64,000 nt of DNA, taken from a virus. Position numbers and translations under genes: made by a program. Positions 18,381 through 41,769 of the stretch are shown here, one piece after another (within the stretch, counting starts at the first letter, position 1; each line of letters starts with the position of its first letter). The DNA is taken from positions 64,001 to 128,000 of the IMG/VR virus record IMGVR_UViG_3300030012_004221, one strand, 5' to 3'. The notes under the pieces were generated by a model. That model made no database searches, was not told the DNA's origin, and saw only the letters and a program-made list of their open reading frames with translations.

Positions 18381-19115
18381 TTAAAATTCTGTTTCTGCTT
18401 TCCTTACTATAAAATATCTAGAAGAAATATCATCTAGTTTAAAATCCAATTGGATTAGTCCCATACTACTTAAATACATTTTACCACCTTCCATATCTTT
18501 ATTTGCTTGAAGGATGGTTTTAAATGTATCTGAGTTGAATGGTAATTTAATATCTTTTTCTTTAATATCTCCTTTAACTTGATATGTTATCTTATTATTA
18601 TGTCCAGATTCATCTCCAAACACAAATTCAACTACATCCTCACCATCTAAATTTGTAGTTGTAGTTACTAACATGTTATCAACTTGGGATAATGCACTTT
18701 TTGCTCTAATAATATTTTCAACATCTTCAGATGTTAAATCTAATTCAACAACCCATTCTGGGACTGTTACTTCACCTACCTTATTTATTAATAAAGGATC
18801 TGATAAAGCATAATTTAAGTTAAAATTTAAATCAGATATTTTTAATTTAGTATAAATTGCATTATTTTTTTCTAGCTCTAGTAATAAATCACCATTACAA
18901 ATATTAATTAAACTTAATAATTTTTTAGTATCATAAATGGCTAGTTTACTATTTTCTAATTGAAAATTATCACACGCAACAGAACCTATAACATCTTTTG
19001 TAGGTGTCATAAAATTAATTCCTAATTTATTATCCTCAATTACCCATTTTACAGCTTCATTTACTCCAAGGTAATATTTGTTAATAATTGATTGTATTGT
19101 TAATTTATTTATCAT
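18381..19115 (-). CDS. DNA polymerase sliding clamp (T4 gp45-like)
   Basis: 244 aa, alternating beta pattern, LAIYDTKKLL. Lies between the polymerase and the clamp loader. Confidence 0.7.
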   Translation of the reverse strand: MINKLTIQSIINKYYLGVNEAVKWVIEDNKLGINFMTPTKDVIGSVACDNFQLENSKLAIYDTKKLLSLINICNGDLLLELEKNNAIYTKLKISDLNFNLNYALSDPLLINKVGEVTVPEWVVELDLTSEDVENIIRAKSALSQVDNMLVTTTTNLDGEDVVEFVFGDESGHNNKITYQVKGDIKEKDIKLPFNSDTFKTILQANKDMEGGKMYLSSMGLIQLDFKLDDISSRYFIVRKAETEF

Positions 19116-20785
19116 TTTTTAGTATACATTTTATCATTTATTACTAGTTTATCTACTATTCCGTTGTCCAAATGTACGAAAGCTTCTTTGGGACGACAAA
19201 CTATAGGTTCACCATGTACGTTAAAGCTAGTATTTAGCAAAACAGGAATATCTGTTATTTCTCTAAAACAATCTAACAAATTATAAAATTTAATATTTGA
19301 GTCTTTAGTTACTATTTGTATTCTTGCTGTTTTATCTACAGGATGAACTACAGCTGGGATTTTATCATACCACTCTTTTCTTGTATCATATAACATAGTC
19401 ATGAATTCAGCTGTGTATCTAGATTTATTAACATGAAATACAGTATCAGCATAATTATCTAATACTACAGGAGCAAAAGGCATATTATCATTTCTTTGTA
19501 ATCTATCGTTAACTTTTTTATATGTACCTGGAACACTTGGGTCAGCAATTATACTTCTATTACATAATGCTCTAGGACCATGTTCAGATCTTCCCTGAAA
19601 CCATCCTATTACTTTACCTTCCTTTAAGTCATAAGCTAATGAAGATTTATCATATGGTCTAATATGATATTTTTCATGATCATCTTTTACTTCCCCAAAT
19701 GCAATTGATTTTTGAGAGACTGGGGTGTTGGGGTTTATTGGGAATTTATTATCATAAGATGTTCCTAAATAAACATCTTTTAATCTAAATGGTTTAAAAT
19801 CTGAGTTGTGTTTTTTATAAACAGCTAAAGCTGATCCCAAAGGTAAACCTTCATCTCCCATAGGTGGAGCAACAAATACCTCATTTACCCACTTTAATTC
19901 GTTAATTTTTTTATTTAGTTTTACATTAGCAAAAACACCTCCTGCTAAAGCAATATTTTTAGCTTTAGGGTATTTATTATGGTAATAATCTATTAATTGT
20001 AGTACTTTTTTTTCAAAAACTAATTGGCCATTATAAGCTAAATCTTCTGGTTTGAATGAATGAGGACCATCACATAATAATGGATTATTATTAACAAATA
20101 ATTTATAAAAATCTTCATATATTTTTCGTGTATTTCCTACATCCCCCATAGGGTGGTCTAAATCAGTTTGACCTGTTTTAGATATAGTAACACACTCGTT
20201 AAAAGATTCATATATCCAATCAACATATTCTCCATGAGATGATAATCCTACAATTTTACCTTCATCTTTTAACCTTTTAAACCCTAAAAGTTCAGTAAGC
20301 ATACAATAATAATGACCTAAAGATTTAGTATTTAAAGAATGTTGTTGAATAAGTTCTAAATTACCTTTTTTTCCTACATAACACCTCGCCCAATCATACT
20401 CTCCAGCTCCATCAATAGAAATTACAAGTGTATCTTTTTTAAACCCACTACAATAATAAGCTAAATTACAGTGAGCTTCATGATGGTTAATATGAATCCA
20501 TTTTTCTTTGGGAAAAGGACCTAAACCAATTCCTTCCCATATATTTTTACTTATTTTTAAAGGAAAATTAGTTGTTAAGTAATCTATTTTATTCCAATCA
20601 AAATTTTTATTATACCAAACATTTTGTCCTGATTGGTAAGGATATCTAAATATGTTATTAAAATAATCTTTATAAGTTCTAATCCTATTAAACCTTTCTT
20701 CTTCAAAAGCAAAAATAGGTTTACCATCTTCTAAATATGCTATACCGCAACTATGTTCTCCCCCACTTAAAGCTAATATTCTCAT
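19112..20785 (-). CDS. Carbamoyltransferase (NodU/CmcH family)
   Basis: EEERFNR, HHEAH, EGKIVGL, AGGVFANV, GDEG, GPRAL, PFAP and LLNTSFNVHGEP. Confidence 0.93.
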   Translation of the reverse strand: MRILALSGGEHSCGIAYLEDGKPIFAFEEERFNRIRTYKDYFNNIFRYPYQSGQNVWYNKNFDWNKIDYLTTNFPLKISKNIWEGIGLGPFPKEKWIHINHHEAHCNLAYYCSGFKKDTLVISIDGAGEYDWARCYVGKKGNLELIQQHSLNTKSLGHYYCMLTELLGFKRLKDEGKIVGLSSHGEYVDWIYESFNECVTISKTGQTDLDHPMGDVGNTRKIYEDFYKLFVNNNPLLCDGPHSFKPEDLAYNGQLVFEKKVLQLIDYYHNKYPKAKNIALAGGVFANVKLNKKINELKWVNEVFVAPPMGDEGLPLGSALAVYKKHNSDFKPFRLKDVYLGTSYDNKFPINPNTPVSQKSIAFGEVKDDHEKYHIRPYDKSSLAYDLKEGKVIGWFQGRSEHGPRALCNRSIIADPSVPGTYKKVNDRLQRNDNMPFAPVVLDNYADTVFHVNKSRYTAEFMTMLYDTRKEWYDKIPAVVHPVDKTARIQIVTKDSNIKFYNLLDCFREITDIPVLLNTSFNVHGEPIVCRPKEAFVHLDNGIVDKLVINDKMYTKK

Positions 20786-20787
20786 AT

Positions 20788-21168
20788 TTAATTTATTTTA
20801 TTCCATTTATCATCAGAGCCCATTTCAAAAGATCCTATAAAAATCATATTCCATTCATCTGGACCTATTAATGATAAAAATAATGTTTCGTCTTCTCTTT
20901 GATATAAATGGTAAGTATGACCTTTTATAGGTTCAAATCTAAAATCACTACTATAAACTAAATCATTCCACTTAAACTCTTCTAATAATTTTTTATATTC
21001 ATCTTTTATTTCATTAAAGCGAGCTTCAAAGTAATGATTAGTTTTTAAAATTTTTTCTTGTTTATAAGCTTCAATATTAGTAGGTCTGATAGCAGGTGCC
21101 CCTACATTATCACCATAAGGCATAATTGCCTTATTCTCTGCAAACATATCTGGTTTATCTTTAGCCAT
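20788..21168 (-). CDS. DUF2452-like protein
   Basis: PYGDNVGAPAI, FEPIKGHTYHLY and FLSLIGPDEW. Confidence 0.7.
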   Translation of the reverse strand: MAKDKPDMFAENKAIMPYGDNVGAPAIRPTNIEAYKQEKILKTNHYFEARFNEIKDEYKKLLEEFKWNDLVYSSDFRFEPIKGHTYHLYQREDETLFLSLIGPDEWNMIFIGSFEMGSDDKWNKIN

Positions 21169-21169
21169 A

Positions 21170-22102
21170 TTAAAATTTAAAAAACATTTCTTTATATGGA
21201 TTTAAATTTAATGTCCAACCTAAATCATTATAAAATCCTTCTAATTTATTTAACAAAATACTTTCAAATATTTTTTTCCTATCAGCATTTTGTTCTATAA
21301 ATGTACGTATTTTTTCAGGTAAATCCCAATCTAAAAATGCTATTGCATCAATTTGATATGGGTTAGGTTTTAAATAAATCCATTTAACTTTATCACCCTG
21401 TGTAATTTGACTATGTTTACTACTTAACCCCCAGAATCTAAGTAAATCATTATATCTAATAACAGCTCTTACAGCTGCTGGGGCTCCTTTAGCTACAACA
21501 GTAAACATTTCACCTGCTCTAGCTTTACGTTCAGTATACTTATTTAATGTTTTTACAGATGTTGGGTTACCTAACTCCGTTAATTGAATAGAGCCATCAA
21601 GAATTTGTTTTTTAAAATCTTTTACTCTATTATCTATTTCATTTTGTGCGGCCCCCTTTAAAACATCTACTAATGTTTTATGAAAAAATTTACCTAATAC
21701 AGGTGGGAAATTAGCTTTTTTAAATTCTAATCCTTTAACATCTAATGATTCTTTTACTATACCTTCTTGTTTAGTAATCCATTGTGCATAACGTCTTGTT
21801 GCTCTAAAATAAGCTGAACGTATAACACATTCAGTTTTCATTTCTAGTCTATGTTTACCTTTAGCATTAAAACAATCTTTAGCTAATTTATCATATGATT
21901 TAGTAACAATTCCTTCATAATCCATTGCTATACCTTCTAAAGCATCATCTTTTTCTTCAGCATTCATTTCATCAAAATCATCATGTCTAAATCTTAATAA
22001 AGGTTCAGCATGCATATAAATTGAATCTGTATCACTATAAGTACAGTAATTAGTATCTTCAGGATCACAAATCCACCAAGGAGTATCTTCTAAATGTTTC
22101 AT
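21170..22102 (-). CDS. Family B DNA polymerase, C-terminal subunit (motif C and thumb)
   Basis: YSDTDS motif C, RRYA, KGLE and GDKVKWIYLK. Confidence 0.9.
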   Translation of the reverse strand: MKHLEDTPWWICDPEDTNYCTYSDTDSIYMHAEPLLRFRHDDFDEMNAEEKDDALEGIAMDYEGIVTKSYDKLAKDCFNAKGKHRLEMKTECVIRSAYFRATRRYAQWITKQEGIVKESLDVKGLEFKKANFPPVLGKFFHKTLVDVLKGAAQNEIDNRVKDFKKQILDGSIQLTELGNPTSVKTLNKYTERKARAGEMFTVVAKGAPAAVRAVIRYNDLLRFWGLSSKHSQITQGDKVKWIYLKPNPYQIDAIAFLDWDLPEKIRTFIEQNADRKKIFESILLNKLEGFYNDLGWTLNLNPYKEMFFKF

Positions 22103-23769
22103 GCTTTTATTTCTTTATTCATTGCTCTATTAGCTTCTAATGCAGATTCTTGTATAATACGCTGTCCACTAAGTGTTATAGCTTCAGATAAAATTACATT
22201 ACCATAACGGAATGAACCAAGAGCAGTCGCACCATATAACGAATTAAGCAAAATTTTCATTGTATATTGTTTCATATGATAAGCAGCACCTAATTCTTTA
22301 TCTCCAGATTTATATGCTTTTTTCATTGCATTTTTATACTTAACTCTTTCATCAAACCATTTTTTTAATATAGTTGATAATACTGATTCCCGATTAGTAG
22401 CAAACATTACTCCATTTGCTGAGATAGATAATTCATTTTCTTCAATCATCTTAACTAACCTACCTACATTAACTTTAGTTTGTTTTCTTTTATTATTTTC
22501 AACAATTAATTCTTCAGCATAATCTCTAGTTTTTAAATCATTTAACCCTAAACGATTGTTTCTATCATCAGCATCCATAATTCTACCAACCATAGTTTCT
22601 TTACCAATATTAACAGTCATTATAATTGAAGGATATAGTGATGTTAAATCTAAGTCAAAAACATAGTTATAAATTCCTGCTTTAGGGCAAAATAAATAAC
22701 CACCAGCATAGTTCTTTTTAGATAATGGATTACGATCTTTAGCAGGTGGTATTATATTTTTACTTAATAAATAAGCTGATATAGCTCCATCTTGTGTTTT
22801 AGTATTAGCATAAACTTCACTATAATTATGTTTACCTTTATGAGCCAGATTTTTTACTAATGACAAATACTCTAATTTTTCATCTAGTACTTTTAAAATT
22901 TCAACATCTCGAAAGTTATATTGAATAAATTTAAGGGGATCCTCTTCAAATAATTTATCTAAATTACCATCATATTCTATTTTCTTTATATTAGCATATT
23001 TTTCTCCAATAGCATCTAATTTAAATGATGGTTCATCTGCCCAACTAAATTTCTTATGTAGTCTCATATAATCTAAAGACTCAACACCTGCTATTTGAAT
23101 ATATTGATCTTTAAACCAAGGTGTTTCTCTTACATAACCAATTGGGGATAAATGTCTAGCCCAATCTTCACCTAATACATTACACATTCTATAGTATAAA
23201 TAAGGTATATCAAAATAATCACTATTCCATCCTACTAAAATATCAGGATCAATTTCTCTAAACTTTTCTAAAAATTTTGCTAATAATTCTTCTTCTGTTT
23301 TACAAGGTATAATTTCTTTAGTTTTAGCTTTTGTTCTATCCATTTTAGATTTTGGATCTAAAATTAAAATAGCCCATTGATCTACTTGTTTATCATACCA
23401 TGCTATTGAAGTTACTTTTTTAGGTGCTGATTTAATATAATCTTCAGTAAGTGCATCACCCATTTCTGTTTCAATATCAAAAAATAATTCTTTTTGTGTA
23501 GTTGAGGGTTCATCATTTGTGCCATACTTTTCAACTAGAAATTTTTGATATGGAGTCATATCATGAAAGTGGAGTTTTATATTATCTGATTTCCAATTAG
23601 AAATCTTTTTTAATGACTCTCCATTTAGACCTGTATGTGTAGATTGAGAATCATCACATTCTATGTAAGCTTGATTAGTCCACTCAATTTTACTATAACC
23701 TTTATCTTCCCAAAGATGAACTAAAAATTCATTACCTTTTATTCTTTGAGCAAAACACTTTTTATACAT
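22099..23769 (-). CDS. Family B DNA polymerase, N-terminal subunit (3'-5' exonuclease, motifs A and B)
   Basis: FDIET, GWNSDYFDIPY, YNFRDV, DLTSLYPSI and KILLNSLYG. Confidence 0.93.
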   Translation of the reverse strand: MYKKCFAQRIKGNEFLVHLWEDKGYSKIEWTNQAYIECDDSQSTHTGLNGESLKKISNWKSDNIKLHFHDMTPYQKFLVEKYGTNDEPSTTQKELFFDIETEMGDALTEDYIKSAPKKVTSIAWYDKQVDQWAILILDPKSKMDRTKAKTKEIIPCKTEEELLAKFLEKFREIDPDILVGWNSDYFDIPYLYYRMCNVLGEDWARHLSPIGYVRETPWFKDQYIQIAGVESLDYMRLHKKFSWADEPSFKLDAIGEKYANIKKIEYDGNLDKLFEEDPLKFIQYNFRDVEILKVLDEKLEYLSLVKNLAHKGKHNYSEVYANTKTQDGAISAYLLSKNIIPPAKDRNPLSKKNYAGGYLFCPKAGIYNYVFDLDLTSLYPSIIMTVNIGKETMVGRIMDADDRNNRLGLNDLKTRDYAEELIVENNKRKQTKVNVGRLVKMIEENELSISANGVMFATNRESVLSTILKKWFDERVKYKNAMKKAYKSGDKELGAAYHMKQYTMKILLNSLYGATALGSFRYGNVILSEAITLSGQRIIQESALEANRAMNKEIKA

Positions 23770-24319
23770 CTACGTTTTCTAACTCTTCTTTTTTAAAAAA
23801 TTGTTGTAAATCTGGTCTATAATAATTGACATTTTTCATGACTTTTCTATCACGTGTTCTATAGACAATATAATATTTTCCAACCTTCTCATAGTGACAT
23901 GGTTCATTTTGCTCTTTGGAACGGAGTTCCACTGTAGCTTGTGCTTCCTCTTCGCTTGAGCAAGCTTTAGACATATTCGACCCTTGTACTTCAAGATACG
24001 CTGGCCATATTTTATCTTTAAGACCATGTAGCATAGTTCCGTTACCCAATGAAACGTAGGCAATGTCACATAAAGCATCAAGAACCTCAACAACATTACC
24101 TGTTTCGCATGCAACCTTGTATTCTTCAAGTTCTTCAAGAATAAAGTCATAAACAAACTGCCATTCTTTTTTTTCAGGAATTGTTGGTTCATAATTATTT
24201 GGTTTACCCATTGTAGAGTTAAATTCCTCTACTTCTGATACAAAAGGTACATATGCCTCTGATGTTTGCATTTTATACTTATCAGTATCAACTTTCATTA
24301 ATTTAATTTCATCATTCAT
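23762..24319 (-). CDS. MazG-like (PRA-PH/DR2231-type) dNTP pyrophosphohydrolase
   Basis: EELEEY, EVLDALCD and EVQGSNMSK. Confidence 0.8.
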   Translation of the reverse strand: MNDEIKLMKVDTDKYKMQTSEAYVPFVSEVEEFNSTMGKPNNYEPTIPEKKEWQFVYDFILEELEEYKVACETGNVVEVLDALCDIAYVSLGNGTMLHGLKDKIWPAYLEVQGSNMSKACSSEEEAQATVELRSKEQNEPCHYEKVGKYYIVYRTRDRKVMKNVNYYRPDLQQFFKKEELENVDV

Positions 24320-24324
24320 AACTT

Positions 24325-25023
24325 TTAAATTTGATGTCCACCATTATTTATTTTAATTGAGTCAAAAAACTCTTTTCTTGCTAAGTTAGTATTTTGTCTA
24401 AATACACCTGATGCTTTAGTTGTTACCATTGAAGCACCATCATGCTTAACTCCTCTACAACTTACACAATTATGGGTTGCCACAACTGTTACAATTACTC
24501 CTCTATTACCCTCAGTAACTTTATCTACAGCATTATGAATTGCTGATGTTAATTGTTCTTGTATAGCACCTCTTCTACCAAATAATTCAACTATTCTATT
24601 TAATTTAGATAATCCAATTACTTGACCACCTTCTCCAGCTATGTAACCAATATGAACAACACCTTTAATAGTTTGATGATGGTGTGAACACATTGATGTT
24701 AATGGAATGTTTCTTTCAATTACAATACCATCATAACCATCTGATGGAAAAGAAGTAATTGGAGACATTGGGCTATATCTACCTGCCCATAAATCATTCA
24801 CATATGCTTTAGCTACCCTTCTAGGTGTGTCAGCTGAGTTTGGGTCATTTTGCCAGTCACAATCTAATGCTTCTAAAAATCGAGCATAAGCAGCAGTAGC
24901 TTTCTCAATCATTTTTTCCTTTTGTTTTTCATTTAAAGGAAAATTAGTTGCAACCCCATTTGCAAAACCTTTTTGTACAACCTCTAATTTTTCATTGAGG
25001 TTTTTAATCTTTTTTTCTGCCAT
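24325..25023 (-). CDS. folE: GTP cyclohydrolase I
   Basis: TPRRVAK, SMCSHH, GLSKLNR, QEQLT and HNCVSCRGV. Confidence 0.95.
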   Translation of the reverse strand: MAEKKIKNLNEKLEVVQKGFANGVATNFPLNEKQKEKMIEKATAAYARFLEALDCDWQNDPNSADTPRRVAKAYVNDLWAGRYSPMSPITSFPSDGYDGIVIERNIPLTSMCSHHHQTIKGVVHIGYIAGEGGQVIGLSKLNRIVELFGRRGAIQEQLTSAIHNAVDKVTEGNRGVIVTVVATHNCVSCRGVKHDGASMVTTKASGVFRQNTNLARKEFFDSIKINNGGHQI

Positions 25024-25046
25024 TGTTTATAACTTTTTATTATTAT

Positions 25047-25081
25047 TAATATACAAATTAATTTGGACAATTCCAAATTAA
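25047..25081 (-). promoter_or_regulatory. Promoter TTTGG-N19-TATATTA overlapped by a 10-bp inverted repeat (25058-25081)
   Basis: Recurrent motif. ttaatttgga-caat-tccaaattaa covers the upstream element. Confidence 0.65.
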
Positions 25082-25082
25082 G

Positions 25083-26153
25083 TTAACTAAGTCCATATCT
25101 ACCTTTTAGGGCATCATACACATCACTTATTTCACTATTTGATAATGCTTTATTGTAACATAATACAGCTCCAATACCATTAGGTCCTTCTACAGCACCA
25201 GCATAACCATATCCTACTCTAACATTTAATGCTGGGTCTAAAGCTGTATTACTTCTTGAATTATAACTTGCAACCCAATTTGCTCCATTTTTAGAATAAA
25301 ATCCAGTTCTAGCAGTTGATGTTAATCCTGTGGTCATTTTTATAGCCATTATAGTCCAAGCACCCTCACCACTATTAGTATCACAAGCTGCTGTGTTTGC
25401 ATGATCATAATTAGGTGTTTTTCTTGAATAATAAGAAAATGCTTCACTCGTTTCCCATGTAACAGCTATTTCTTGTTTGTAAGATTGTGGTCCACTATCT
25501 CCTTTTTTTTCAAATATAGTATCTCTTTCTGTAATTTGAGTACACCAAACTGCCATTACGAGTGTGCAATCACCTCCCATATTAACAATAGGAGAATGAG
25601 ATAATACAGCTTCATAATATCCACTTCCATCAAACTGATAAGCACAATAACCTCCTAAAAACTCTTTACTTAAACCACCACTTTTAGGTTCAAATTCAAT
25701 TCCATTTCCACTTACATCAAACCAAGAAGTACTGTCACCAACATAAGCACTTGCACTTATTTGAGAATCTAAATACATAGATAACCCATCCATAGGTAAC
25801 TCAGGTGGGAAATTATCTATTGGTGTATTTTTATTATTATGACTAACCATTGCATCAGCATTAGTTAAATATTCTAAAGCCTCTGCTAATGTTGTAATAG
25901 ATGGTTGGTTAAAATCTTGTTGAACTAATTGAATTAATTCTGCATCACTTGTAGGAGTATAAGAAATTGGTACTATGCCTGAAGATGGTGCTTTTGTTAC
26001 TACATAACCAGTTGATACTGTTTGAGCATAATAATCTGTTTCAGCTGAAGGTCCGTAATTACCATCAACAACTGCCTTATTAATATCACTTTTTACAATT
26101 GAATTTGAATCTACTTCTTCAGAAACTTTTACAGGGGGACGATCCATTGACAT
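25083..26153 (-). CDS. LamG/concanavalin-like domain protein, probable virion component
   Basis: GLSMYLDS, WFDVSGNG, FDGSG and YNKALSNSEI. Downstream of a late-type motif. Confidence 0.7.
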   Translation of the reverse strand: MSMDRPPVKVSEEVDSNSIVKSDINKAVVDGNYGPSAETDYYAQTVSTGYVVTKAPSSGIVPISYTPTSDAELIQLVQQDFNQPSITTLAEALEYLTNADAMVSHNNKNTPIDNFPPELPMDGLSMYLDSQISASAYVGDSTSWFDVSGNGIEFEPKSGGLSKEFLGGYCAYQFDGSGYYEAVLSHSPIVNMGGDCTLVMAVWCTQITERDTIFEKKGDSGPQSYKQEIAVTWETSEAFSYYSRKTPNYDHANTAACDTNSGEGAWTIMAIKMTTGLTSTARTGFYSKNGANWVASYNSRSNTALDPALNVRVGYGYAGAVEGPNGIGAVLCYNKALSNSEISDVYDALKGRYGLS

Positions 26154-26154
26154 A

Positions 26155-26313
26155 TTACGGAGTATTATTTATTATAGAATTATAAAAAACATATGCATCT
26201 TCTTTTGTATCATAAAATGTTCTAGTAGTTTCATAAGAAGGCCAATTGTAAAAAGCATCAATCCACCATTTACCAGAATCAGAGTCATAATCCATATTGC
26301 AAAAATATACCAT
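26155..26313 (-). CDS. Small hypothetical protein (52 aa, MVYFCNMDYDS...)
   Basis: Manual translation. Sits between a late-type motif and the LamG gene. Confidence 0.55.
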   Translation of the reverse strand: MVYFCNMDYDSDSGKWWIDAFYNWPSYETTRTFYDTKEDAYVFYNSIINNTP

Positions 26314-26324
26314 AATGTTTTAAT

Positions 26325-26333
26325 TATAAATAT
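26325..26333 (-). promoter_or_regulatory. Late-type promoter motif ATATTTATA
   Basis: Same motif precedes the structural and lysis genes elsewhere in the window. Confidence 0.6.
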
Positions 26334-26752
26334 TATGGTAATTTATAATCTTGAATCGCTTTAGAATCTTTTCTCTCCCAGGGATATATAATCCATTCAT
26401 TACCTTCAAATCTTTGGGCATAAGCTGTAGGTGTAAATTTTGAAGTGTGTGGTTTGTGATGTAAAACAGCTGTTATAGCTGCTTCACTATTATATAATGT
26501 TTCTCCACTATCACAAATATCATCAATAAGTAAAGTATTTCTTATTGTTTTATCATCTGACCATAATATTTTATCAGTATATGGAAGGTTTAACTTATGT
26601 GAAACTAATACTGCTGGTATTAATCCACCTCTAGCTAAACCTGATATATGAGTTACATTTGGTATTTTTGTTGCTATTTTTTCACATAAAACTTCTACTA
26701 AATCTTCAACATCGCTCCAATTTAAATATATTTTATTATCTATTTTTATCAT
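26333..26752 (-). CDS. Type I purine phosphoribosyltransferase (Gpt/Hpt-like)
   Basis: GLARGGLIPA, LLIDDICDSGET (PRPP loop) and WIIYPWE. Confidence 0.88.
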   Translation of the reverse strand: MIKIDNKIYLNWSDVEDLVEVLCEKIATKIPNVTHISGLARGGLIPAVLVSHKLNLPYTDKILWSDDKTIRNTLLIDDICDSGETLYNSEAAITAVLHHKPHTSKFTPTAYAQRFEGNEWIIYPWERKDSKAIQDYKLP

Positions 26753-26758
26753 TAATTT

Positions 26759-27097
26759 TTATCTTTTACCCCCATGATATTCAACTGCATGGCCTTCAGT
26801 TATTAAAGTTTGATTAACATTTCTTCCATCAACATATATGATACCTAAACATCTTCCAAATTTACCTACTCCCATTGATTGTAAAGTAAATCTACCACTT
26901 TCTAAAAGTTCTTCTAATCTAATTTTTGAAGCTATACCTTTAGCTTTTTCATCTAAATCTCTAGTTCTTGATTCAGGGGCATTCATACCATGCATCCTAA
27001 TTCTTACTCTTTTCCAAGTATCAAATCCTAAATCTACAAGAGCATCAACAGTATCTCCATCAACAACTCTATCTAATTTTGCGTTATATTCATACAT
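26759..27097 (-). CDS. Thermonuclease (SNase-like) family nuclease
   Basis: RVVDGDT, RMHGMNAPE and GKFGRCLG. Confidence 0.85.
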   Translation of the reverse strand: MYEYNAKLDRVVDGDTVDALVDLGFDTWKRVRIRMHGMNAPESRTRDLDEKAKGIASKIRLEELLESGRFTLQSMGVGKFGRCLGIIYVDGRNVNQTLITEGHAVEYHGGKR

Positions 27098-27608
27098 TTA
27101 TTTCTGTTTTTAATTGTTTATACCAATTTTCTAATCTTTCTACAGTTAATTCATCTTGATTATCTTCATCTAAACATAACCCCCAAAATGTATTTTCATC
27201 TTTAAGAGCTTTAGAAGATTCAAACTCAAATGAATCGTCTTTTTTAGTGAGGCCTATTACTTTACCTCCATTTTCCTCAACTACTTTAGCTAATATTCCT
27301 ACACCATCACAAAACCACTCGTCATACCCAATTTGGTCACCTAAACCAAATATAGCTACTGTTTTACCTGTAAAATCTATAGTTTTAAATTCTTCAAAAT
27401 AATCTTCCCAATCACTTTGTAATTCACCATCATACCAAGTTGGTATACTTAAAATATAAAAATCATGTGATTTCCAATCTTCAGGTCTAACAGCATGTAC
27501 ACCTATAGTTTCAATATCAAAATAAGGTTCAAAAATACCTAATAGATTATTATCTATAACATTTTCAGTATTACCTGTATCTGAACCATAAATTAATTTA
27601 ATTTTCAT
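27090..27608 (-). CDS. fldA: Long-chain flavodoxin
   Basis: YGSDTGNT, PTWYDGELQ, FGLGDQ and GLCLDEDNQ. Confidence 0.92.
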   Translation of the reverse strand: MKIKLIYGSDTGNTENVIDNNLLGIFEPYFDIETIGVHAVRPEDWKSHDFYILSIPTWYDGELQSDWEDYFEEFKTIDFTGKTVAIFGLGDQIGYDEWFCDGVGILAKVVEENGGKVIGLTKKDDSFEFESSKALKDENTFWGLCLDEDNQDELTVERLENWYKQLKTEINV

Positions 27609-27753
27609 AACTATTTTTTATATCAACTAATAATTCCATAATTTCCTCTACCTTAAACTTGCATTCCTGTCCTTCACATAAATCTTGACAGCAACGATCA
27701 GTATTAAGATAAATAAATTCTAATTTTTCATCTATTTCATCCCACTTAGACAC
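27598..27753 (-). CDS. Small Cys-rich protein (51 aa, CC-x3-C-x4-C)
   Basis: Manual translation from a GTG at 27753. Overlaps the queE stop and the flavodoxin start. Confidence 0.5.
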   Translation of the reverse strand: MSKWDEIDEKLEFIYLNTDRCCQDLCEGQECKFKVEEIMELLVDIKNSYEN

Positions 27754-28519
27754 AACGTTCAGTATTAAAAGCCATAATATGAGATCTACCTGTAAATCTC
27801 CATCCTCTATCTCTTACAAAATTCATTACTTCAGGATATGACTCCATTAAAGATTCTCTATCATCCCCAGCAGGCATAGCCCAAACTTTATGGTCTGGAA
27901 TATTACATTCTTTAAGCATTTCTTCAACTTCTCCAACCATAGATAAATTTTTATCTAATACAGGTTTAATATGATAATCTGAATGGTAAGCTATTGATTT
28001 TTTAATTGCATCAATATTCATTCTTTTTGAATTATGCTTTTTAATCATCCTTTCATCTGTCACAGTACCCTGAGGTGTTTTAACACCAAGTACGGGGATG
28101 CTATTACTAAACTTGGGACTAATAGAAAGCAAGTTAATAGGGTAATCAGTAGGAAGAAAATGGCTACCTTCAGTTTCAATAGTAATAAAAATATCTCTTT
28201 CATGAGCAAAGTGGGTTAATTCATTTACTAATTTAGGATGCATCGTAGGAGATCCTCCTGTTAACATCATTTCCTTGATATGAGGATGCTGATCATATGC
28301 ATCTATAATATCTTGAAAACAATACATTCCTTTTTCAGGATGAATACTTGTATACCAAGAATCACACCATCCTCCTTCTCCAAAATAACATCTATGAGTA
28401 CACCCAGTAGTTCTAATTACTATGGTAGGGTAACCTTGACGACTACCCTCACTTTGTACTGCCGTGTATACTTCTACTACAGGCAGATTTTTACTATAAT
28501 CTTCGATTCTTTTTAACAT
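27746..28519 (-). CDS. queE: 7-carboxy-7-deazaguanine synthase (radical SAM)
   Basis: QSEG, RTTGCTHRC...WCDS, LTGG.P, TIETEG and SISPK. ATG start at 28519. Confidence 0.9.
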   Translation of the reverse strand: MLKRIEDYSKNLPVVEVYTAVQSEGSRQGYPTIVIRTTGCTHRCYFGEGGWCDSWYTSIHPEKGMYCFQDIIDAYDQHPHIKEMMLTGGSPTMHPKLVNELTHFAHERDIFITIETEGSHFLPTDYPINLLSISPKFSNSIPVLGVKTPQGTVTDERMIKKHNSKRMNIDAIKKSIAYHSDYHIKPVLDKNLSMVGEVEEMLKECNIPDHKVWAMPAGDDRESLMESYPEVMNFVRDRGWRFTGRSHIMAFNTERCV

Positions 28520-28520
28520 A

Positions 28521-28552
28521 TGCAAATTTTTTAAAGTGGTTTTACAGTCACT
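28521..28552 (-). promoter_or_regulatory. Candidate H-type pseudoknot leader before queE (preQ1-I-like architecture)
   Basis: P1 is AGUG/CACU with loop ACUGUAAAAC, followed by an A-rich linker. UUUGCA can pair with loop UGUAAA and ends 1 nt before the AUG. Confidence 0.35.
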
Positions 28553-28561
28553 ATATACAAC

Positions 28562-29029
28562 CTATTCTCCAATATAACATGCAGCATTTTTACCATGCTC
28601 CATAAATTTAACTTTGGTAACTTTTACTCTACCTTCAGTTTCAGTATCTACAAATTTTTGTAGCTTATTATAAATATATTCAGCAAATTTTTCTGCACCA
28701 GTTGCTTCAACTTTTCTTAACTGAATTACTCCTAATTTATCCATTGTTTCAAAACCTTTAAGACCTGGATCATCTTCTGCTACTACTACGGTGTGATCAA
28801 ACATATAATCCATCCATTCTTTAGGTGACTTACCATCAATTTGAGTTTTAGCTCTTTTCATACCACCAAAATCCCAAACCCAATTTCTATGATCTAATTC
28901 ACCTTCAAAATATACTTTAAATGAAATACCATAACCATGCAAAAATCTACAATGTGTTGTTTCTGCTTTCCATTGACGAAATACAGTACTAAATCCGTCA
29001 AATACTTTACTTGATTGAAACTTACCCAT
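28562..29029 (-). CDS. queD: 6-carboxytetrahydropterin synthase (QueD-like, variant motif)
   Basis: HCRFLHGY, WVWDFG, FDHT and GAEKFA. Lies between queC and queE. Confidence 0.85.
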   Translation of the reverse strand: MGKFQSSKVFDGFSTVFRQWKAETTHCRFLHGYGISFKVYFEGELDHRNWVWDFGGMKRAKTQIDGKSPKEWMDYMFDHTVVVAEDDPGLKGFETMDKLGVIQLRKVEATGAEKFAEYIYNKLQKFVDTETEGRVKVTKVKFMEHGKNAACYIGE

Positions 29030-29279
29030 TATACCAATTTTTTATAGCTGTTATCCCATCAAAAGCACCTACATGTCTTTTAATTTCGTTTCCATTCATA
29101 TCTGTTACAATACTAGTAGGAATGTTTTTTACGTTATATTTCTGTGGAAGATCTGCATCATAATCAATGTTTATCTTTCTAACAGGGATACCTGATTTGG
29201 CTATTTCTTCCATTTGTGGTGATAGTGCTTTACAAGGTCCACACCAAGGAGCACTAAAATATAAAATACCTTTATCCAT
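29022..29279 (-). CDS. Thioredoxin
   Basis: WCGPC and IPT. Confidence 0.92.
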   Translation of the reverse strand: MDKGILYFSAPWCGPCKALSPQMEEIAKSGIPVRKINIDYDADLPQKYNVKNIPTSIVTDMNGNEIKRHVGAFDGITAIKNWYNG

Positions 29280-29296
29280 TTTTATTTAATTTTTAA

Positions 29297-29530
29297 TTAT
29301 ACTAATTCTTCTATTATACCAATTGCTTCACTCAATATAAGTAAAACAGTTGCAGTTACCAAACTAAAAGGAATAAAAACATAACCTACAATCCTTACAC
29401 CAGATTTAATAAAACTAATTATTTGGTGTAATTTAGGATCAGGATGATCTATTGTACCATTTTTTTTGGCTAAGCGGTTTACTAATTTATCTACCTCTTT
29501 ATCTAAATGTTTGTCTTGAATATCATTCAT
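29297..29530 (-). CDS. Small membrane protein
   Basis: C-terminal hydrophobic stretch; HQIISFIKSGVRI. Confidence 0.55.
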   Translation of the reverse strand: MNDIQDKHLDKEVDKLVNRLAKKNGTIDHPDPKLHQIISFIKSGVRIVGYVFIPFSLVTATVLLILSEAIGIIEELV

Positions 29531-29533
29531 AAT

Positions 29534-30379
29534 TTAATTTTTAATTTGTTCTAATTCATATTCAGCAAGAACTTGCTCTACATAAATCCTAGCTGTTTCA
29601 TAATCAACTGCACCTGTTTCATCCGCATATTGTACTGGATCAGGTCTTCCTAGTTTAATAAACGCTTCAATACGTTCTACAGACGATGCTGATTTATAAT
29701 CAGACCATCCTTCTGGGGTTGGTTTATATGAAGTATTTGTTCTAGCATAAACTTCATCAAAATCAATCTTTAATTTTTTACATAAAACTTCTCCATCTTT
29801 TAAAATATCAAATTTATCACCATTTAAATAAGGTGTATAATATGATACTCTTGATGCTTCCCAATTACCTTCAGCAAACGCTTTATAATCAGCATCTCTA
29901 AATTCTTGTCTACAATCAGGATAAATTGCATGATCACCAGCGTGAATACCCATTGCTATTCTAACAGGTGATTCTGTTTTATTTGCTATTGATAATGCTA
30001 CAGCTTGTACTAGTGAAGAAAATATTTTATTTCTATTAGGTACTACTGTAGCTTTCATATTATCTTCAGCATAATGTCCTTCTGGTACTTCATCTCCACC
30101 TTCTACTAAAGCTGAGTCTAATAATTCTACTAAACCATCTAATTTAATAACTTGATAATTAACATTATGACCATTTCTTTTTAAATAATCTACTAATGCT
30201 CTTGCTCTTTTAAGTTCAACTTTATGTTTTTGACCATAGTCAAATGACATAGCTGTTACTGTTTCAAATTCATCAAGACATCTAAGCAATAATGTACTTG
30301 AATCCATACCACCTGAAAGTGATACTACTGCATGTTTTGGACGTGCTGCGTCTTTAAAATTAATTTCTAATTGTGTCAT
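29534..30379 (-). CDS. queC: 7-cyano-7-deazaguanine (preQ0) synthase
   Basis: SLSGGMDS, FDYGQKH, VPNRN and HAGDHAIYPDCR. Confidence 0.93.
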   Translation of the reverse strand: MTQLEINFKDAARPKHAVVSLSGGMDSSTLLLRCLDEFETVTAMSFDYGQKHKVELKRARALVDYLKRNGHNVNYQVIKLDGLVELLDSALVEGGDEVPEGHYAEDNMKATVVPNRNKIFSSLVQAVALSIANKTESPVRIAMGIHAGDHAIYPDCRQEFRDADYKAFAEGNWEASRVSYYTPYLNGDKFDILKDGEVLCKKLKIDFDEVYARTNTSYKPTPEGWSDYKSASSVERIEAFIKLGRPDPVQYADETGAVDYETARIYVEQVLAEYELEQIKN

Positions 30380-30395
30380 TTTTATTATATTAAAA

Positions 30396-30430
30396 TTTGC
30401 CAGGTATTATAAAGCGTATAGGCAAACGCT
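30396..30430 (-). promoter_or_regulatory. Candidate H-type pseudoknot leader before queC
   Basis: P1 is AGCGU/ACGCU. Loop UUGCC is complementary to GGCAA 11 nt downstream of P1. The element ends 16 nt before the AUG. Confidence 0.5.
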
Positions 30431-30650
30431 ACATTTCATTTAATTTAAGCATTTTTTCTCTAATAACCACCCTAAAGTGATTATTTTGTATTTTAGCACT
30501 ACCTCCTTGTTTAAGAAGCTTTCTAAATAAAAATTCTTCATTTTCATTCCAAAATTCACTTAAAGCTATAATTTCATCTTTATTAGCTACTTCTTTACTT
30601 TTATTTAAGTAAACTTTATGAGTTGATCTTATTGATTGTTTTTTTAACAT
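30429..30650 (-). CDS. Hypothetical protein
   Basis: 73-aa basic ORF within the operon. Confidence 0.55.
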   Translation of the reverse strand: MLKKQSIRSTHKVYLNKSKEVANKDEIIALSEFWNENEEFLFRKLLKQGGSAKIQNNHFRVVIREKMLKLNEM

Positions 30651-30653
30651 ATT

Positions 30654-30782
30654 TTATACTTTAGATGCAACAAAAAATACAAATAATACAATAACAGCAA
30701 TTAAGGAAGTAACAGCCAAGCTAATTCCAAATGCTAGTTTTATACCAGTCATTACATAATTATGGAATTTTTTTCTTTTCAT
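30654..30782 (-). CDS. Small single-TM protein (42 aa)
   Basis: Manual translation gives MKRKKFHNYVMTG followed by a hydrophobic helix. Confidence 0.5.
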   Translation of the reverse strand: MKRKKFHNYVMTGIKLAFGISLAVTSLIAVIVLFVFFVASKV

Positions 30783-30961
30783 TACATATATTTAGGAACC
30801 CTAAATTTTAATATTGGATTACCATTAACAGTAGGTTGACCCATCTCATCAATTCCAATTTCTTTGACTTTAACTGGTTTATTCCTAAATCTACCAGTTA
30901 GTATTGTATCTCCTTTTTTAATAGGAATTATAAAATAATCTTCTATATATGTTGCTTTCAT
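30782..30961 (-). CDS. Small hypothetical protein (59 aa, GDTILTGRFRNK...GQPTVNG)
   Basis: Manual translation. ATGA overlap with the upstream DpdA-like gene. Confidence 0.6.
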   Translation of the reverse strand: MKATYIEDYFIIPIKKGDTILTGRFRNKPVKVKEIGIDEMGQPTVNGNPILKFRVPKYM

Positions 30962-31764
30962 ATATTATTAATTTTTCTAAATTTGTTAACATTAAATTCT
31001 AATAAATCATAATCAACTTGATCATCTAACATATAAAAGTAATCATTCATATTTGCTGTTGGTTTCTTAAATAAACCAGCACTAGTATATGCTATATCTT
31101 CTAAAGCAGCCATTACTGGGTTAGATGTATCAATTGATTCAATACAATTTATATTTTTATACCATCCAAATTCTTGGGGTACAGCACATCCTAGTAAATG
31201 AACTCTATCATCTTGTTTTAACTCCCCAGTTTTAAGTAAAGTAGATATTACAAATAATCTACCTAATGCTTTACCTAAATCTTTATTAGGATGGGTACAA
31301 ATATCATTATAATAAGAAGCACCATATGAAAATGCTATTTTTCCATAACCTAATTCTTTATATCTTCTAGCACAAGTAGCTGCTTGTTCAAGAGTAGTAG
31401 CTTGTACAACTGCTACTTTTTCAACTCCTATTGGAAAATCATATATTTGCCAAATTGCGGCATTATGTATAGATTGTCCTGAGTCTTCCCAAACATCTGG
31501 TACTATAAATTCATTAGGTTTTAATTCATTTACCCAGTGAATTAGACGTTCATGAGTATAAGCTTCACCTAGCTCATGTAATGAGTTATCCATTATAATA
31601 TAACGTCCTTGTTCTTTTGCTTTCTGAAAATATTCTAAATATTTAGGTTCTTCATCTAGTAAATGGGGAAGACAATAATCATAGTCATTAAATCTTTGAC
31701 TATCTTCTAGTAAACACATTGGAGTTTCATGACTGATTTTGATGTTACTAACTTCGACTTTCAT
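30958..31764 (-). CDS. dpdA: DpdA-like TGT-fold 7-deazaguanine transglycosylase
   Basis: IMDNS, IVPDV, VAVVQ, HLLG and SIDTS follow the order of TGT/DpdA barrel motifs. Heads the que cluster. Confidence 0.65.
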   Translation of the reverse strand: MKVEVSNIKISHETPMCLLEDSQRFNDYDYCLPHLLDEEPKYLEYFQKAKEQGRYIIMDNSLHELGEAYTHERLIHWVNELKPNEFIVPDVWEDSGQSIHNAAIWQIYDFPIGVEKVAVVQATTLEQAATCARRYKELGYGKIAFSYGASYYNDICTHPNKDLGKALGRLFVISTLLKTGELKQDDRVHLLGCAVPQEFGWYKNINCIESIDTSNPVMAALEDIAYTSAGLFKKPTANMNDYFYMLDDQVDYDLLEFNVNKFRKINNI

Positions 31765-31784
31765 TTATAACTTTTTATTTTTAA

Positions 31785-31814
31785 TAATATACAAAACCTT
31801 TTTTATACAACCAA
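31785..31814 (-). promoter_or_regulatory. Early/middle-type promoter TTGG-N19-TATATTA driving the dpdA-que operon
   Basis: Recurrent motif with 19-nt spacer. Confidence 0.7.
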
Positions 31815-31820
31815 GCTAAA

Positions 31821-39412: not shown

Positions 39413-40042
39413 TTATTTCCATGCATATAACATTGCTAAATTGTAAAAATCATGAGGTCGTTCATATGCTAAAGAAAATCCATTAGTTGAAAACTTATTC
39501 ATTATATATAATAATTTACTTGTTTTATGACCATCAAAATCACTGCCGTGAGAATATTTTTTACCATCATTTTTCCAGTCTAAATGTATTTCAATAGCCC
39601 ATTTTTTTACTCTATTAAGTGTAGATGTTTTCATATTTATTAAAACTGGATATTCTGCATGTTCAATATCCATTTTAACAAAATCAATATGACTTAATTT
39701 ATTATCATCTATAACTCCTTGAATATTATATAAATTATTTGATGGATCATATTTATCATCTATAAAGCCAAGAGTTGGAATTATTTGGGGATTATTTTTA
39801 GTATTTTCTACTAAAGAATTATAGTGAGGAGGTGCACTTTCAAAACTATAAACTTTACTAGCTCCTTTTTGTATAGCAAAATGGGAAAACATTCCGACAA
39901 ATGCCCCACAATCTAAAACAACATCTCCTGCTTGAACTTTAGAACCATGTTTGTGGTATTCTTCTTCTATAAAAATTTCATTATAAAAATCAGCAATAAC
40001 ACCTTCTTGTTCTATTGGGTATTTAAAATCTTCAATACGCAT
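39413..40042 (-). CDS. FkbM-family methyltransferase
   Basis: VLDCGAFVGMFS and DFVKMDIEHAE. Confidence 0.85.
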   Translation of the reverse strand: MRIEDFKYPIEQEGVIADFYNEIFIEEEYHKHGSKVQAGDVVLDCGAFVGMFSHFAIQKGASKVYSFESAPPHYNSLVENTKNNPQIIPTLGFIDDKYDPSNNLYNIQGVIDDNKLSHIDFVKMDIEHAEYPVLINMKTSTLNRVKKWAIEIHLDWKNDGKKYSHGSDFDGHKTSKLLYIMNKFSTNGFSLAYERPHDFYNLAMLYAWK

Positions 40043-40052
40043 TTATATAAAA

Positions 40053-41768
40053 TTAACCATCACAAGATACACATTCAGCCATTCTTGATCCTAAATCACC
40101 TTTAATCACTGAGTCTGTTCTTAAATAATAAAACGTTTTAATTCCTAATTTCCAACCTTCCATATGAACTTGATTTATCCATTTTGGAGAATCATTAGGA
40201 TCAAATGATAAATTTAAAGATTGTGTTTGGTCAATATATCTTTGTCTTATAGCAGCTTGTCTAACTAATTCTAACTGATTAGTTTCTGGGAATGTTAAAA
40301 ATAATTCTTTTTCATCTGGGGTTAAAATTTCATCTGGTAGGTTTTGAACTGAACCTCCATCCTGAAGCATTTGATCCCACCATTTTTGTTTATTTTCACC
40401 TTTTCCTTTTAATATATTTTCTAATACTTTATTTTTTCTAATAAAAGTACCTTTAGCACCATTAAAAGTGTAAATGTTAGCAGGTAAAGGTTCAATACCT
40501 GCTGATATACCACCACAAATAACTGAGTTAGAAACTGTAGGTGCAACTGCTAATAAATGAGTATTTCTCATACCCGTACCTCTACACCACATTGGTTCAC
40601 CATATTCTTGAGCTAAATCCATAGATGCTTTTTCTGCTTTACTACTGATGTCTCGGAATATAGTATGTGTCCAAGCTGTAGACGCTATAGAATTGAATGG
40701 TAATCCTTTTTGTTGTAAAAACGTGTGCCATCCCATTACACCTAAACCTAATGCTCTACCTTTTTTAGCATGATTATGAGTTCTTCTTAATGAATCCTTA
40801 CCATTAGATTTATCAATAAATTCTTGCATTACACCATCTAAAAACCAAGTTGCTAATTCAACAGTATCTGTATCTTTCCAATCTTCATATTTAGCTAAGT
40901 TTAAAGAAGATAAACAACAAATAAATGAATGTTCTTCATCTGTAAATAATGTAATCTCAGAACATATATTAGTCATAGACACATCTAAATTATTTAATCT
41001 ATAAGCAATAGGATTATCTTTATTAACATTATCCTTATACATTATATAAGGTTCACCTGTTTCCATTCTTGCTTTTAAAACAGTAGCCCACCTACTCATA
41101 GCTTCAGAGTCTCTTGCTTCTAGTTTTCTCATAAAATTATCTCCTACAACTACACATTGGTGTAAGTTTAAACACTGTCTATTAGGATCCCCTTTAGGTC
41201 TTCTAATTTGCAAAAATTCATCTATATCTGGATGTTCAATATCTAAATTAACAGATGCTGCTCCTCTTCTTACATTACCTTGATTAGTAGCTATAATAGA
41301 TGAATCATAAATTTTACACCAAGGTACTACACCTTCACTTTTACCATTACCTGCTATTTCAGTACCTCTAGGCCTAATTCTTGAAACACCAATTCCTACA
41401 CCACCACCTTTAGAAGTTAATCTCATTAATTCAGCGTTAGTTAAACCAATACCTCTTATTGAATCAGGAGTATCAATTCCATAACATGAAATTGGTAAAC
41501 CTCTATCTGTACCCATATTAGAGATAACAGGTGAAGCTAAACCTAACCAACCATTCCAAATAATTTTATAAAATTTATTTTCTAATTCAGGTTTTTTTAA
41601 TCTAAATGCTGCTGCCTTAGCTACTCTTCTATAAGCTTTTTTTACATCTTCTCCTGGGAGTAAATATCCTTTAGATATTGTTGCTAAAGAAATTTCATCC
41701 ATCCATTCTGGGTAGTTTTTTCCTGCTTCCCAACTTGTATAATCTACTTGTAATGCGTTATTTTCCAT
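40053..41768 (-). CDS. nrdA: Ribonucleotide reductase class Ia alpha subunit (no ATP cone)
   Basis: PISC, GGGVG, TNICSEI, APTVSNS, KTFYYLR and C-terminal CVSC. Start set at MENNAL. Confidence 0.95.
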   Translation of the reverse strand: MENNALQVDYTSWEAGKNYPEWMDEISLATISKGYLLPGEDVKKAYRRVAKAAAFRLKKPELENKFYKIIWNGWLGLASPVISNMGTDRGLPISCYGIDTPDSIRGIGLTNAELMRLTSKGGGVGIGVSRIRPRGTEIAGNGKSEGVVPWCKIYDSSIIATNQGNVRRGAASVNLDIEHPDIDEFLQIRRPKGDPNRQCLNLHQCVVVGDNFMRKLEARDSEAMSRWATVLKARMETGEPYIMYKDNVNKDNPIAYRLNNLDVSMTNICSEITLFTDEEHSFICCLSSLNLAKYEDWKDTDTVELATWFLDGVMQEFIDKSNGKDSLRRTHNHAKKGRALGLGVMGWHTFLQQKGLPFNSIASTAWTHTIFRDISSKAEKASMDLAQEYGEPMWCRGTGMRNTHLLAVAPTVSNSVICGGISAGIEPLPANIYTFNGAKGTFIRKNKVLENILKGKGENKQKWWDQMLQDGGSVQNLPDEILTPDEKELFLTFPETNQLELVRQAAIRQRYIDQTQSLNLSFDPNDSPKWINQVHMEGWKLGIKTFYYLRTDSVIKGDLGSRMAECVSCDG

Positions 41769-41769
41769 A

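Follow-up and report, generated by a model that had tools for sequence, protein, structure and literature searches.

A run of genes at positions 18381–31764 of a 64,000-nucleotide stretch of viral DNA is, judged by homology, a DpdA3-type system, by which a 7-deazaguanine takes the place of guanine in phage DNA. Systems of this kind are already known. What the comparative data add is that a guanine-type purine phosphoribosyltransferase (PRTase) and a nucleoside triphosphate (NTP) pyrophosphatase resembling MazG appear as fixed members of the DpdA3 module. The whole stretch, called the window here, comprises bases 64001–128000 of the 158,183-bp IMG/VR virus record IMGVR_UViG_3300030012_004221, which is estimated to be 97% complete and comes from an uncultured 158-kb marine phage. 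Genes were called with Pfam, NCBIfam and PHROGs profiles, and coordinates of window genes are window positions. All listed cluster genes lie on the minus strand. Those on which the argument turns are:

30958–31764, minus strand: DpdA3-family transglycosylase, 268 amino acids (aa), a minimal TIM barrel of the tRNA-guanine transglycosylase (TGT) fold (tblastn, phrog_19058, AF2/Foldseek)
29534–30379, minus strand: QueC, 281 aa, a variant without the C-terminal zinc-binding cysteines (PF06508, 7e-38; TIGR00364)
28562–29029, minus strand: QueD, 6-carboxytetrahydropterin synthase (PF01242, 1e-14; TIGR03367)
27746–28525, minus strand: QueE, radical-SAM 7-carboxy-7-deazaguanine synthase (TIGR03365, 4e-14; Radical_SAM)
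26333–26752, minus strand: small 6-oxopurine PRTase, 139 aa, XGPRT/Gpt-like (PF00156; NF006613, 7e-11; phrog_8995)
24325–25023, minus strand: FolE, GTP cyclohydrolase I (PF01227, 3e-43)
23762–24319, minus strand: all-alpha NTP pyrophosphatase of the MazG/DR2231 type, 185 aa, with a conserved beta domain at the C-terminus (PF01503, 2e-9; phrog_671)

Related loci were fetched with three anchors, DpdA3 (43 loci), the PRTase (80) and MazG (80), and the window proteins were mapped onto them. Among the 59 loci that have distinct DpdA3 sequences and span QueE to FolE/MazG, a purine PRTase lies between QueE and MazG in 58. Fetching by the PRTase favours loci that have one; the sets anchored on DpdA3 and MazG are free of that bias and give the same result. 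The 59th locus belongs to a complete genome with terminal repeats, where an Hpt-like gene sits 90 kb away. The slot holds the small type found in the window in 38 loci and a different, Hpt-like type in 20, and well-supported branches of the DpdA3 tree force at least four switches between the XGPRT-like and the Hpt-like PRTase. Co-occurrence across relatives, named as a check by the initial annotation of this DNA, is thus strongly positive for the PRTase, which accompanies 58 of 59 related clusters and three other DpdA3 lineages. The same annotation cautioned that PRTases are common in large phages. In que-bearing phages they are rare: QueC is present in 329 GenBank phage records and a PRTase homolog in only 11 of these, all from DpdA3 or DpdA3-like lineages. 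Homologs of the small PRTase among 50,697 GenBank phage records are limited to immuto, phiST-like and Brevundimonas phages, lineages that all carry a DpdA3 or DpdA3-like gene, and the Hpt-like PRTase has no genuine match among GenBank phages. No PF00156 protein was found in five que-bearing phages with other DpdA types (9g, Laurie, phi-ST2, HCTV-1 and VogelGryff). On these gene counts, the PRTase is an integral member of the DpdA3 module.

The window PRTase carries the PF00156 motif for phosphoribosyl pyrophosphate (PRPP), LLIDDICDSGET, matches the xanthine PRTase model NF006613 and is 56% identical to the PRTase of immuto. Its nearest solved structures, 1VDM, 4TRB and 4Z1O, are all purine PRTases, and it keeps a Lys (HHKPH) that is aligned with the Lys of 1VDM (AMKPW), the nearest of them. 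The Hpt-like type scores 149 bits with the HGPRTase equivalog TIGR01203, whose cut-off is 150, and matches 47 HGPRT structures. Both phage types are, as predicted from sequence, 6-oxopurine (guanine-type) enzymes that can replace each other. A genome-contig scan for cellular relatives of the Hpt-like type gave only matches of 32–33%, so no donor can be named.

Every related cluster has a MazG-like gene, with the polymerase on one side of it and FolE or the PRTase on the other. The window protein is 73% identical to gp208 of immuto, and the window belongs to a clade with DNA polymerase PolB, immuto to one with PolA. Since this identity is kept between the two polymerase clades though DpdA3 is only 39% identical, the MazG-like gene travels with the que genes and not with the replication genes. 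The residues E62, E63, E66, D81 and D85 are invariant, leaving the acidic metal motif intact. Searched by sequence against solved structures, the protein gave nothing relevant; its AlphaFold (AF2) model (pLDDT 78) finds its best fold matches in DR2231, a dUTP-specific MazG. In phiST, a MazG-type gene without BLASTP similarity to that of the window directly follows FolE. The window clade, immuto, phiST and CP220 all have an NTP hydrolase gene next to FolE or DpdA3. We infer that the MazG-like pyrophosphatase is a fixed module member acting on a nucleoside triphosphate. The co-occurrence proposed for it is strongly positive, whereas the role in draining dGTP that was proposed with it is weakened by the DR2231-like (dUTPase) fold. 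In the literature searched, we found no explanation for the roles of the PRTase and the MazG-like enzyme, although the genes are annotated in published phages; a phosphoribosyltransferase is not mentioned by Cui, Hutinet et al. (PMC10516641).

The transglycosylase had been called DpdA-like, and this call is borne out with a placement in DpdA3. By tblastn, it is 40% identical to the immuto DpdA, 35% to CP220 gp056 and 23% to phiST CGPG_00065, over 83–97% of the length. The gene product has no significant Pfam match, while its AF2 model (pLDDT 92.6) has only TGT structures as top Foldseek matches (E 2e-8, TM 0.63–0.66). Twelve DpdA3 homologs share invariant D59-N60, P89-D90, Q121, H189-L190-L191-G192 and D212-T213-S214; D59, D90 and D212, which may correspond to the catalytic aspartates of TGT (D102, D156 and D280), recur in a protein of Brevundimonas phage StAshley. 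DpdA3 is a bare barrel of 260–270 aa, about 100 aa shorter than the matched TGT chains (268 against 355–372 aa), and the proteins are mostly acidic (pI 5–6.5). Judging from length alone, the absent part presumably includes the zinc subdomain of TGT. By homology and by the model, the window transglycosylase is a DpdA3, that is, a base-exchange enzyme of the TGT fold. In a close complete relative (G001:73486–74109, locus L241), a ThyX thymidylate synthase gene lies directly upstream of DpdA3.

To our knowledge, no phages other than DpdA3 phages replace every guanine with a 7-deazaguanine. Complete replacement was assigned to this subfamily by Cui, Hutinet et al. (PMC10516641), who reported dADG in CP220, dDG in phiST and fdPreQ1 in immuto, with no detectable dG in three tested DpdA3 lineages (CP220; phiST with phi19:2 and phi13:1; immuto). 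Substitution by the DpdA1 subfamily, carried for example by phage 9g, amounts to 0.1–30% (PMC10516641). In the same work, reconstitution of DpdA3 in E. coli failed, an ADG nucleoside was reported in CP220-infected cells, and the post-replicative mechanism was inferred by the authors from the presence of DpdA3 alone. The PRTase and the MazG-like protein are concrete candidates for the factors missing from the reconstitution. As helper enzymes, they also make the published claim testable, with exchange on DNA set against exchange in the nucleotide pool, and restriction-resistant DNA could be prepared with the help of a defined set of enzymes that yields fully 7-deazaguanine-substituted DNA.

FolE, QueD, QueE and QueC of the window all have matches from the Pfam and NCBIfam searches, and homology shows them as the enzymes that would convert GTP to 7-cyano-7-deazaguanine (preQ0). 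The QueD gene has 77% DNA identity to that of immuto. The C-terminal zinc-binding cysteines are absent from QueC of both the window clade and the immuto-like clade and are kept in QueC of the loci L108 and L111 and of the Brevundimonas phages. At the protein level, the window QueC is 75–77% identical to QueC of immuto-like contigs that bear QueF and DpdN; QueC of such contigs must make preQ0, and preQ0 is therefore the expected product of the window enzyme as well. The initial annotation saw no queF, gat-queC or arcS, and correctly so: QueF and TGT-family proteins such as ArcS are missing from the whole genome of the window, as are DpdN and DpdL, and the window QueC has no amidotransferase domain. 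Because QueF, DpdN, DpdL and a TGT-family ArcS are all lacking, the predicted base is preQ0, in a fully substituted dPreQ0 genome.

Of the known systems, immuto, which infects a Flavobacteriia host and has a genome of ~160 kb, is the most similar in gene content. QueD, QueE, PRTase, FolE, MazG-like and DpdA3, which form a single run in immuto, are common to both at 39–73% protein identity and in nearly equal order, and immuto-like contigs share the QueC type without cysteines. QueF, the formyltransferase DpdN, an AAA_28 kinase and PolA are found in immuto but not in the window genome, whose polymerase is a split PolB. Both phiST and CP220 share with the window a DpdA3 homolog, FolE, QueD and QueE. 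phiST has in addition the NTP pyrophosphatase after FolE and a PRTase homolog at 30% identity, but it lacks QueC and has DpdL, and its PRTase is 17 kb from DpdA3, two genes from the ribonucleotide reductase (RNR). CP220 has neither a PRTase nor MazG, and its DpdA3 stands between gp055, which combines an HD phosphohydrolase with an AAA_33 kinase, and gp057, an AAA_28 kinase.

StAshley carries QueC, QueD, QueE, a DpdA3-like gene, PolA, RNR, a deoxynucleoside monophosphate (dNMP) kinase, FolE and a PRTase, with RNR, dNMP kinase, FolE and PRTase side by side. The DpdA3-like protein is STASHLEY_00090 (L226:665–1465), annotated as hypothetical and encoded directly after QueE; hhalign assigns it at 89%, and it has the motifs DNS, PD, HLLG and IDS. 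If it is a DpdA3, the subfamily would reach phages of Alphaproteobacteria. In a further lineage (L104–L111), QueC, PRTase, a dCMP deaminase, QueD, QueE and FolE lie beside a split PolA. Its member L108:5239–14955 holds split PolA, zinc-cysteine QueC, PRTase, dCMP deaminase, QueD, QueE, FolE and a beta clamp, and L105:1216–2088 encodes a natural fusion of 290 aa with an N-terminal purine PRTase and a C-terminal FolE. No TGT or DpdA3 was seen in the L104–L111 contigs, which are only 10–55% complete (L108 is a 34-kb fragment), and a search for further members of the lineage found almost none. If complete genomes also lack TGT and DpdA3, the PRTase route would stand alone in this lineage.

P-loop kinase-like genes occur 0–2 genes from DpdA3 in phiST, immuto and CP220. 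The gene immediately upstream of DpdA3 in phiST, CGPG_00066 (L134:19484–19963), encodes a P-loop protein of the AAA_18 family, and gp203 of immuto, two genes from DpdA3, is homologous to CP220 gp057 (32% identity, E 9e-20). The two AAA_28 kinase-like genes are:

L002:15570–16094: immuto, AAA_28 kinase-like gene near DpdA3
L135:12813–13355: CP220, AAA_28 kinase-like gene near DpdA3

It is not evident why a DNA transglycosylase should need such neighbours, and they hint at a step at the nucleotide level. The window genome has no homolog of the immuto, CP220 and StAshley kinases by tblastn and no Pfam DNMK match; an AAA_33 search of it gave one weak P-loop match, ~80 kb from the cluster.

We suggest, with about even confidence for and against, that DpdA3 exchanges guanine for preQ0 and that the PRTase recaptures the guanine set free; the exchange could take place on DNA or on free nucleotides.

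Step 1: FolE, QueD, QueE and QueC would make preQ0 from GTP. The flavodoxin encoded in the run is likely the reductant for QueE, and together with the thioredoxin it likely serves as a redox helper of preQ0 synthesis.

Step 2: DpdA3 would take guanine off the N-glycosidic bond and insert preQ0 in its place.

Step 3: The 6-oxopurine PRTase encoded beside FolE would join the released guanine with PRPP to give GMP. As the PRTase removes guanine that would otherwise let DpdA3 run backwards, the exchange would come nearer to completion.

Step 4: GMP would be returned to GTP and enter FolE again, thus closing a guanine cycle. The candidate substrates of the MazG-like enzyme are dGTP, for its exclusion and for the supply of dGMP, or dUTP.

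Guanine is favoured as the PRTase substrate because the lineages with a PRTase differ in their final base (fdPreQ1, dDG and the predicted preQ0) and have guanine in common. The linkage of the PRTase with FolE, the GTP-consuming first enzyme, which is once a fusion, fits recapture.

Several observations weigh against this scheme. CP220 is the sole DpdA3 lineage without a PRTase and nonetheless has all G replaced; recapture is therefore no universal requirement. The window clade is closely related, and some of the co-occurrence in it is due to inheritance. In the phage Hpt-like proteins, Arg replaces the Lys that contacts purine O6 in HGPRT in 25 of 27 cases, and Trp replaces the stacking Phe in all 27 (for example, L130:1453–1956); the changes at these two base-contact positions could mean an altered base specificity. 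7-Carboxy-7-deazaguanine (CDG) is common to all lineages just as guanine is, and the purine PRTase TubE accepts it (PMC6112128). Guanine recycling also leaves the MazG-like enzyme unexplained, its closest modelled fold being that of a dUTPase. A trimeric dUTPase is absent from all five genomes checked (the window's, G001, G003, immuto and phiST), and given this and the DR2231-like fold, the MazG-like enzyme may act as a dUTPase.

The TubE precedent, with CDG and PRPP as substrates, speaks for the route that the initial annotation had proposed, where the PRTase joins preQ0 or CDG to PRPP, kinases and RNR produce the deoxynucleoside triphosphate (dNTP), the MazG-like enzyme clears dGTP and the polymerase incorporates the analogue; DpdA3 would then mop up residual G or have some other role. 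We consider it rather unlikely. The gene clusters of TubE and ToyH (tubercidin, toyocamycin; PMC6112128) do unite FolE, QueD and QueE, with or without QueC, and a purine PRTase, but they are secondary-metabolite clusters of Streptomyces without a transglycosylase, and the comparison with the phage clusters is one of gene content. The ADG nucleoside in CP220-infected cells, the failed reconstitution of DpdA3, the Arg and Trp of the Hpt-like proteins and the adjacency of RNR, dNMP kinase, FolE and PRTase in StAshley also agree with incorporation by the polymerase. So does the fact that all other complete base replacements known to us in phages (hmC, hmU, dZ, dU) are pre-replicative. The parallel drawn with PurZ/MazZ/DpoZ holds for the logic, as the PurZ/MazZ/DatZ/DpoZ system for 2-aminoadenine (dZ) DNA likewise achieves complete base replacement and has a MazG-family pyrophosphatase near base-building genes and a polymerase. 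It does not extend to the parts: the window has no PurZ-like nucleotide enzyme, no polymerase is co-inherited, and DpdA3 has no counterpart in the dZ system. Moreover, the route as such assigns no role to DpdA3, which is universally kept with the module, and it does not account for the complete replacement in CP220 without a PRTase or for the interchange of two differing guanine-type PRTases. That of the window retains the Lys matching 1VDM, no phage nucleotide kinase is found in the window cluster, and a path through ribonucleotides would burden the GTP pool with large amounts of the analogue.

In an alternative to exchange on DNA, the swap would take place in the nucleotide pool: an NTP hydrolase would turn dGTP into dGMP (or dG), DpdA3 would put the 7-deazaguanine in place of guanine on this free deoxynucleotide or deoxynucleoside, the product would regain its phosphates from a kinase, and guanine would be recycled through the PRTase. 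The logic is analogous to that of the T4 dCTPase, dCMP hydroxymethylase and gp1 kinase. It accounts jointly for the NTP hydrolases near FolE or DpdA3 in four lineages (window clade, immuto, phiST, CP220) and for the small P-loop kinases 0–2 genes from DpdA3 in three, and it suits both the ADG nucleoside of infected cells reported by Cui et al. (PMC10516641) and the short, mostly acidic bare barrel of DpdA3. Gene adjacency is indirect evidence, however, the window genome has neither a kinase in the cluster nor a homolog of those kinases, and the MazG-like fold is nearest to a dUTPase. Nor do we know of a TGT-fold enzyme that acts on a mononucleotide. We regard this pathway as quite improbable; the corresponding claim on the enzyme, that DpdA3 is a deoxynucleotide or deoxynucleoside base-exchange enzyme and not a DNA transglycosylase, with dGTP hydrolysed, the base swapped and re-phosphorylated and guanine passing through the PRTase, is a tentative one that we also think unlikely. 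It is very unlikely, finally, that the PRTase serves general purine salvage and the MazG-like protein is a phage dUTPase, both merely near the que genes in an early region of nucleotide metabolism. Members of the MazG-like family do occur in many phages that lack que genes (185 records), the DR2231-like fold and the missing trimeric dUTPase agree with such a coincidence, and PRTase homologs of 28–35% identity are found in contigs without nearby que genes (L109, L112–L125). Against it stand the confinement of GenBank phage PRTase homologs to DpdA3 or DpdA3-like lineages, the Hpt-like type without genuine phage matches, the substitution of one PRTase type for the other in the same slot, the PRTase-FolE fusion, and the joint movement of PRTase, MazG and que genes from one polymerase type of phage (PolB or PolA) to the other.

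The window has a G+C content of ~29%, and open reading frames (ORFs) across 18381–31764 are nearly all on the minus strand. The co-oriented gene run of the initial annotation is sound, with all 15 of its calls supported by Pfam, NCBIfam and PHROGs and their coordinates correct. In coding order, the run consists of DpdA-like, QueC, thioredoxin, QueD, QueE, flavodoxin, SNase, PRTase, a lectin-like passenger, FolE, MazG/PRA-PH, two PolB pieces, DUF2452, carbamoyltransferase and clamp. The remaining features are:

30429–30650, minus strand: conserved small ORF of 73 aa between DpdA3 and QueC (found by tblastn in the equivalent place in most related loci), without a match in Pfam or PHROGs
29297–29530, minus strand: conserved ORF of 77 aa with a hydrophobic C-terminus between QueC and thioredoxin (seen in most related loci), no family match in Pfam or PHROGs
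29022–29279, minus strand: thioredoxin (PF00085, 4e-15), in 53 of 61 related clusters
27090–27608, minus strand: flavodoxin (PF00258, 6e-17), in only 5 of 61
26759–27097, minus strand: SNase-type nuclease (PF00565, 3e-9), in 30 of 61
25083–26153, minus strand: protein of 356 aa whose C-terminal domain is a lectin-like one known from virion structural proteins (phrog_24074, phrog_8510), in 15 of 61
25024–25082, minus strand: FolE leader with a promoter-like motif (sequence comparison with the DpdA3 leader, 31765–31820)
22099–23769, minus strand: family B DNA polymerase, N-terminal piece with exonuclease and motifs A and B (PF00136, PF03104)
21170–22102, minus strand: family B DNA polymerase, C-terminal piece with the YSDTDS motif C (PF20286; PF00136, weak)
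20788–21168, minus strand: DUF2452 protein, an optional insert (PF10504, 1e-11), in 9 of 61
19112–20785, minus strand: carbamoyltransferase of the NodU/CmcH type, optional and here inserted between polymerase and clamp (Carbam_trans_N/C: PF16861, 3e-56, and PF02543, 7e-32; phrog_1601, 8e-93)
18381–19115, minus strand: sliding clamp (phrog_223, DNA polymerase processivity factor, 2e-10)

Where the SNase gene is present among relatives, it is always directly upstream of the PRTase slot. The 356-aa lectin-like protein is a passenger inside the que cluster, outside the pathway. The genes from FolE to the clamp are spaced by at most 5 nt or overlap, which fits the shared promoter proposed for folE, the MazG-like gene and PolB. 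The leaders of FolE and DpdA3 have the motif TTTGTATATTA...AAAAAGTTATAA in common, but window-wide the motif is not enriched over chance, and scans for sigma-70-like promoters and for terminators do not rise above chance in the AT-rich window DNA.

Polymerase, clamp, DUF2452 and carbamoyltransferase are, on their distribution among related sequences, neighbours and not parts of the module. The two PolB pieces are joined by an ATGA overlap, and the split is conserved in relatives; as a system-specific feature it was rejected, because PolA takes the place of PolB in other DpdA3 lineages. PolB is the polymerase of the window clade; immuto, StAshley and the L108 lineage have PolA. The que genes of phage 9g, a DpdA1 phage, too, lie beside polymerase and clamp, and the proposed co-occurrence is negative for the polymerase. 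It is negative also for the carbamoyltransferase, which had been suggested to build a new final base; we rejected it in this role, as no more than 10 of 61 related clusters have it and its position varies. The one phage relative that has been characterised acts on 5-hydroxymethylcytosine (5hmC; MetaGPA, PMC8670742). That enzyme likewise combines Carbam_trans_N with Carbam_trans_C and is found in that study together with pyrophosphatases of PF01503, to which the window MazG-like protein also belongs, but it needs 5hmC from a thymidylate-synthase-like hydroxymethylase, whereas the 97%-complete window genome has no match to PF00303 (thymidylate synthase family) or PF02511 (ThyX). Divergent carbamoyltransferase homologs (29–34% identity) occupy other sites within the que cluster or next to it: in L030 and L040 one separates SNase from PRTase, in L050 one separates MazG from PolB, and in L096 one follows the PRTase.

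The class I RNR of the window lies at 40053–42756, 8 kb away from the cluster, and gave no ATP-cone match, in line with its earlier description as lacking the cone. Adjoining the gene of its large subunit, at 39413–40042, is a gene for an FkbM-family methyltransferase.

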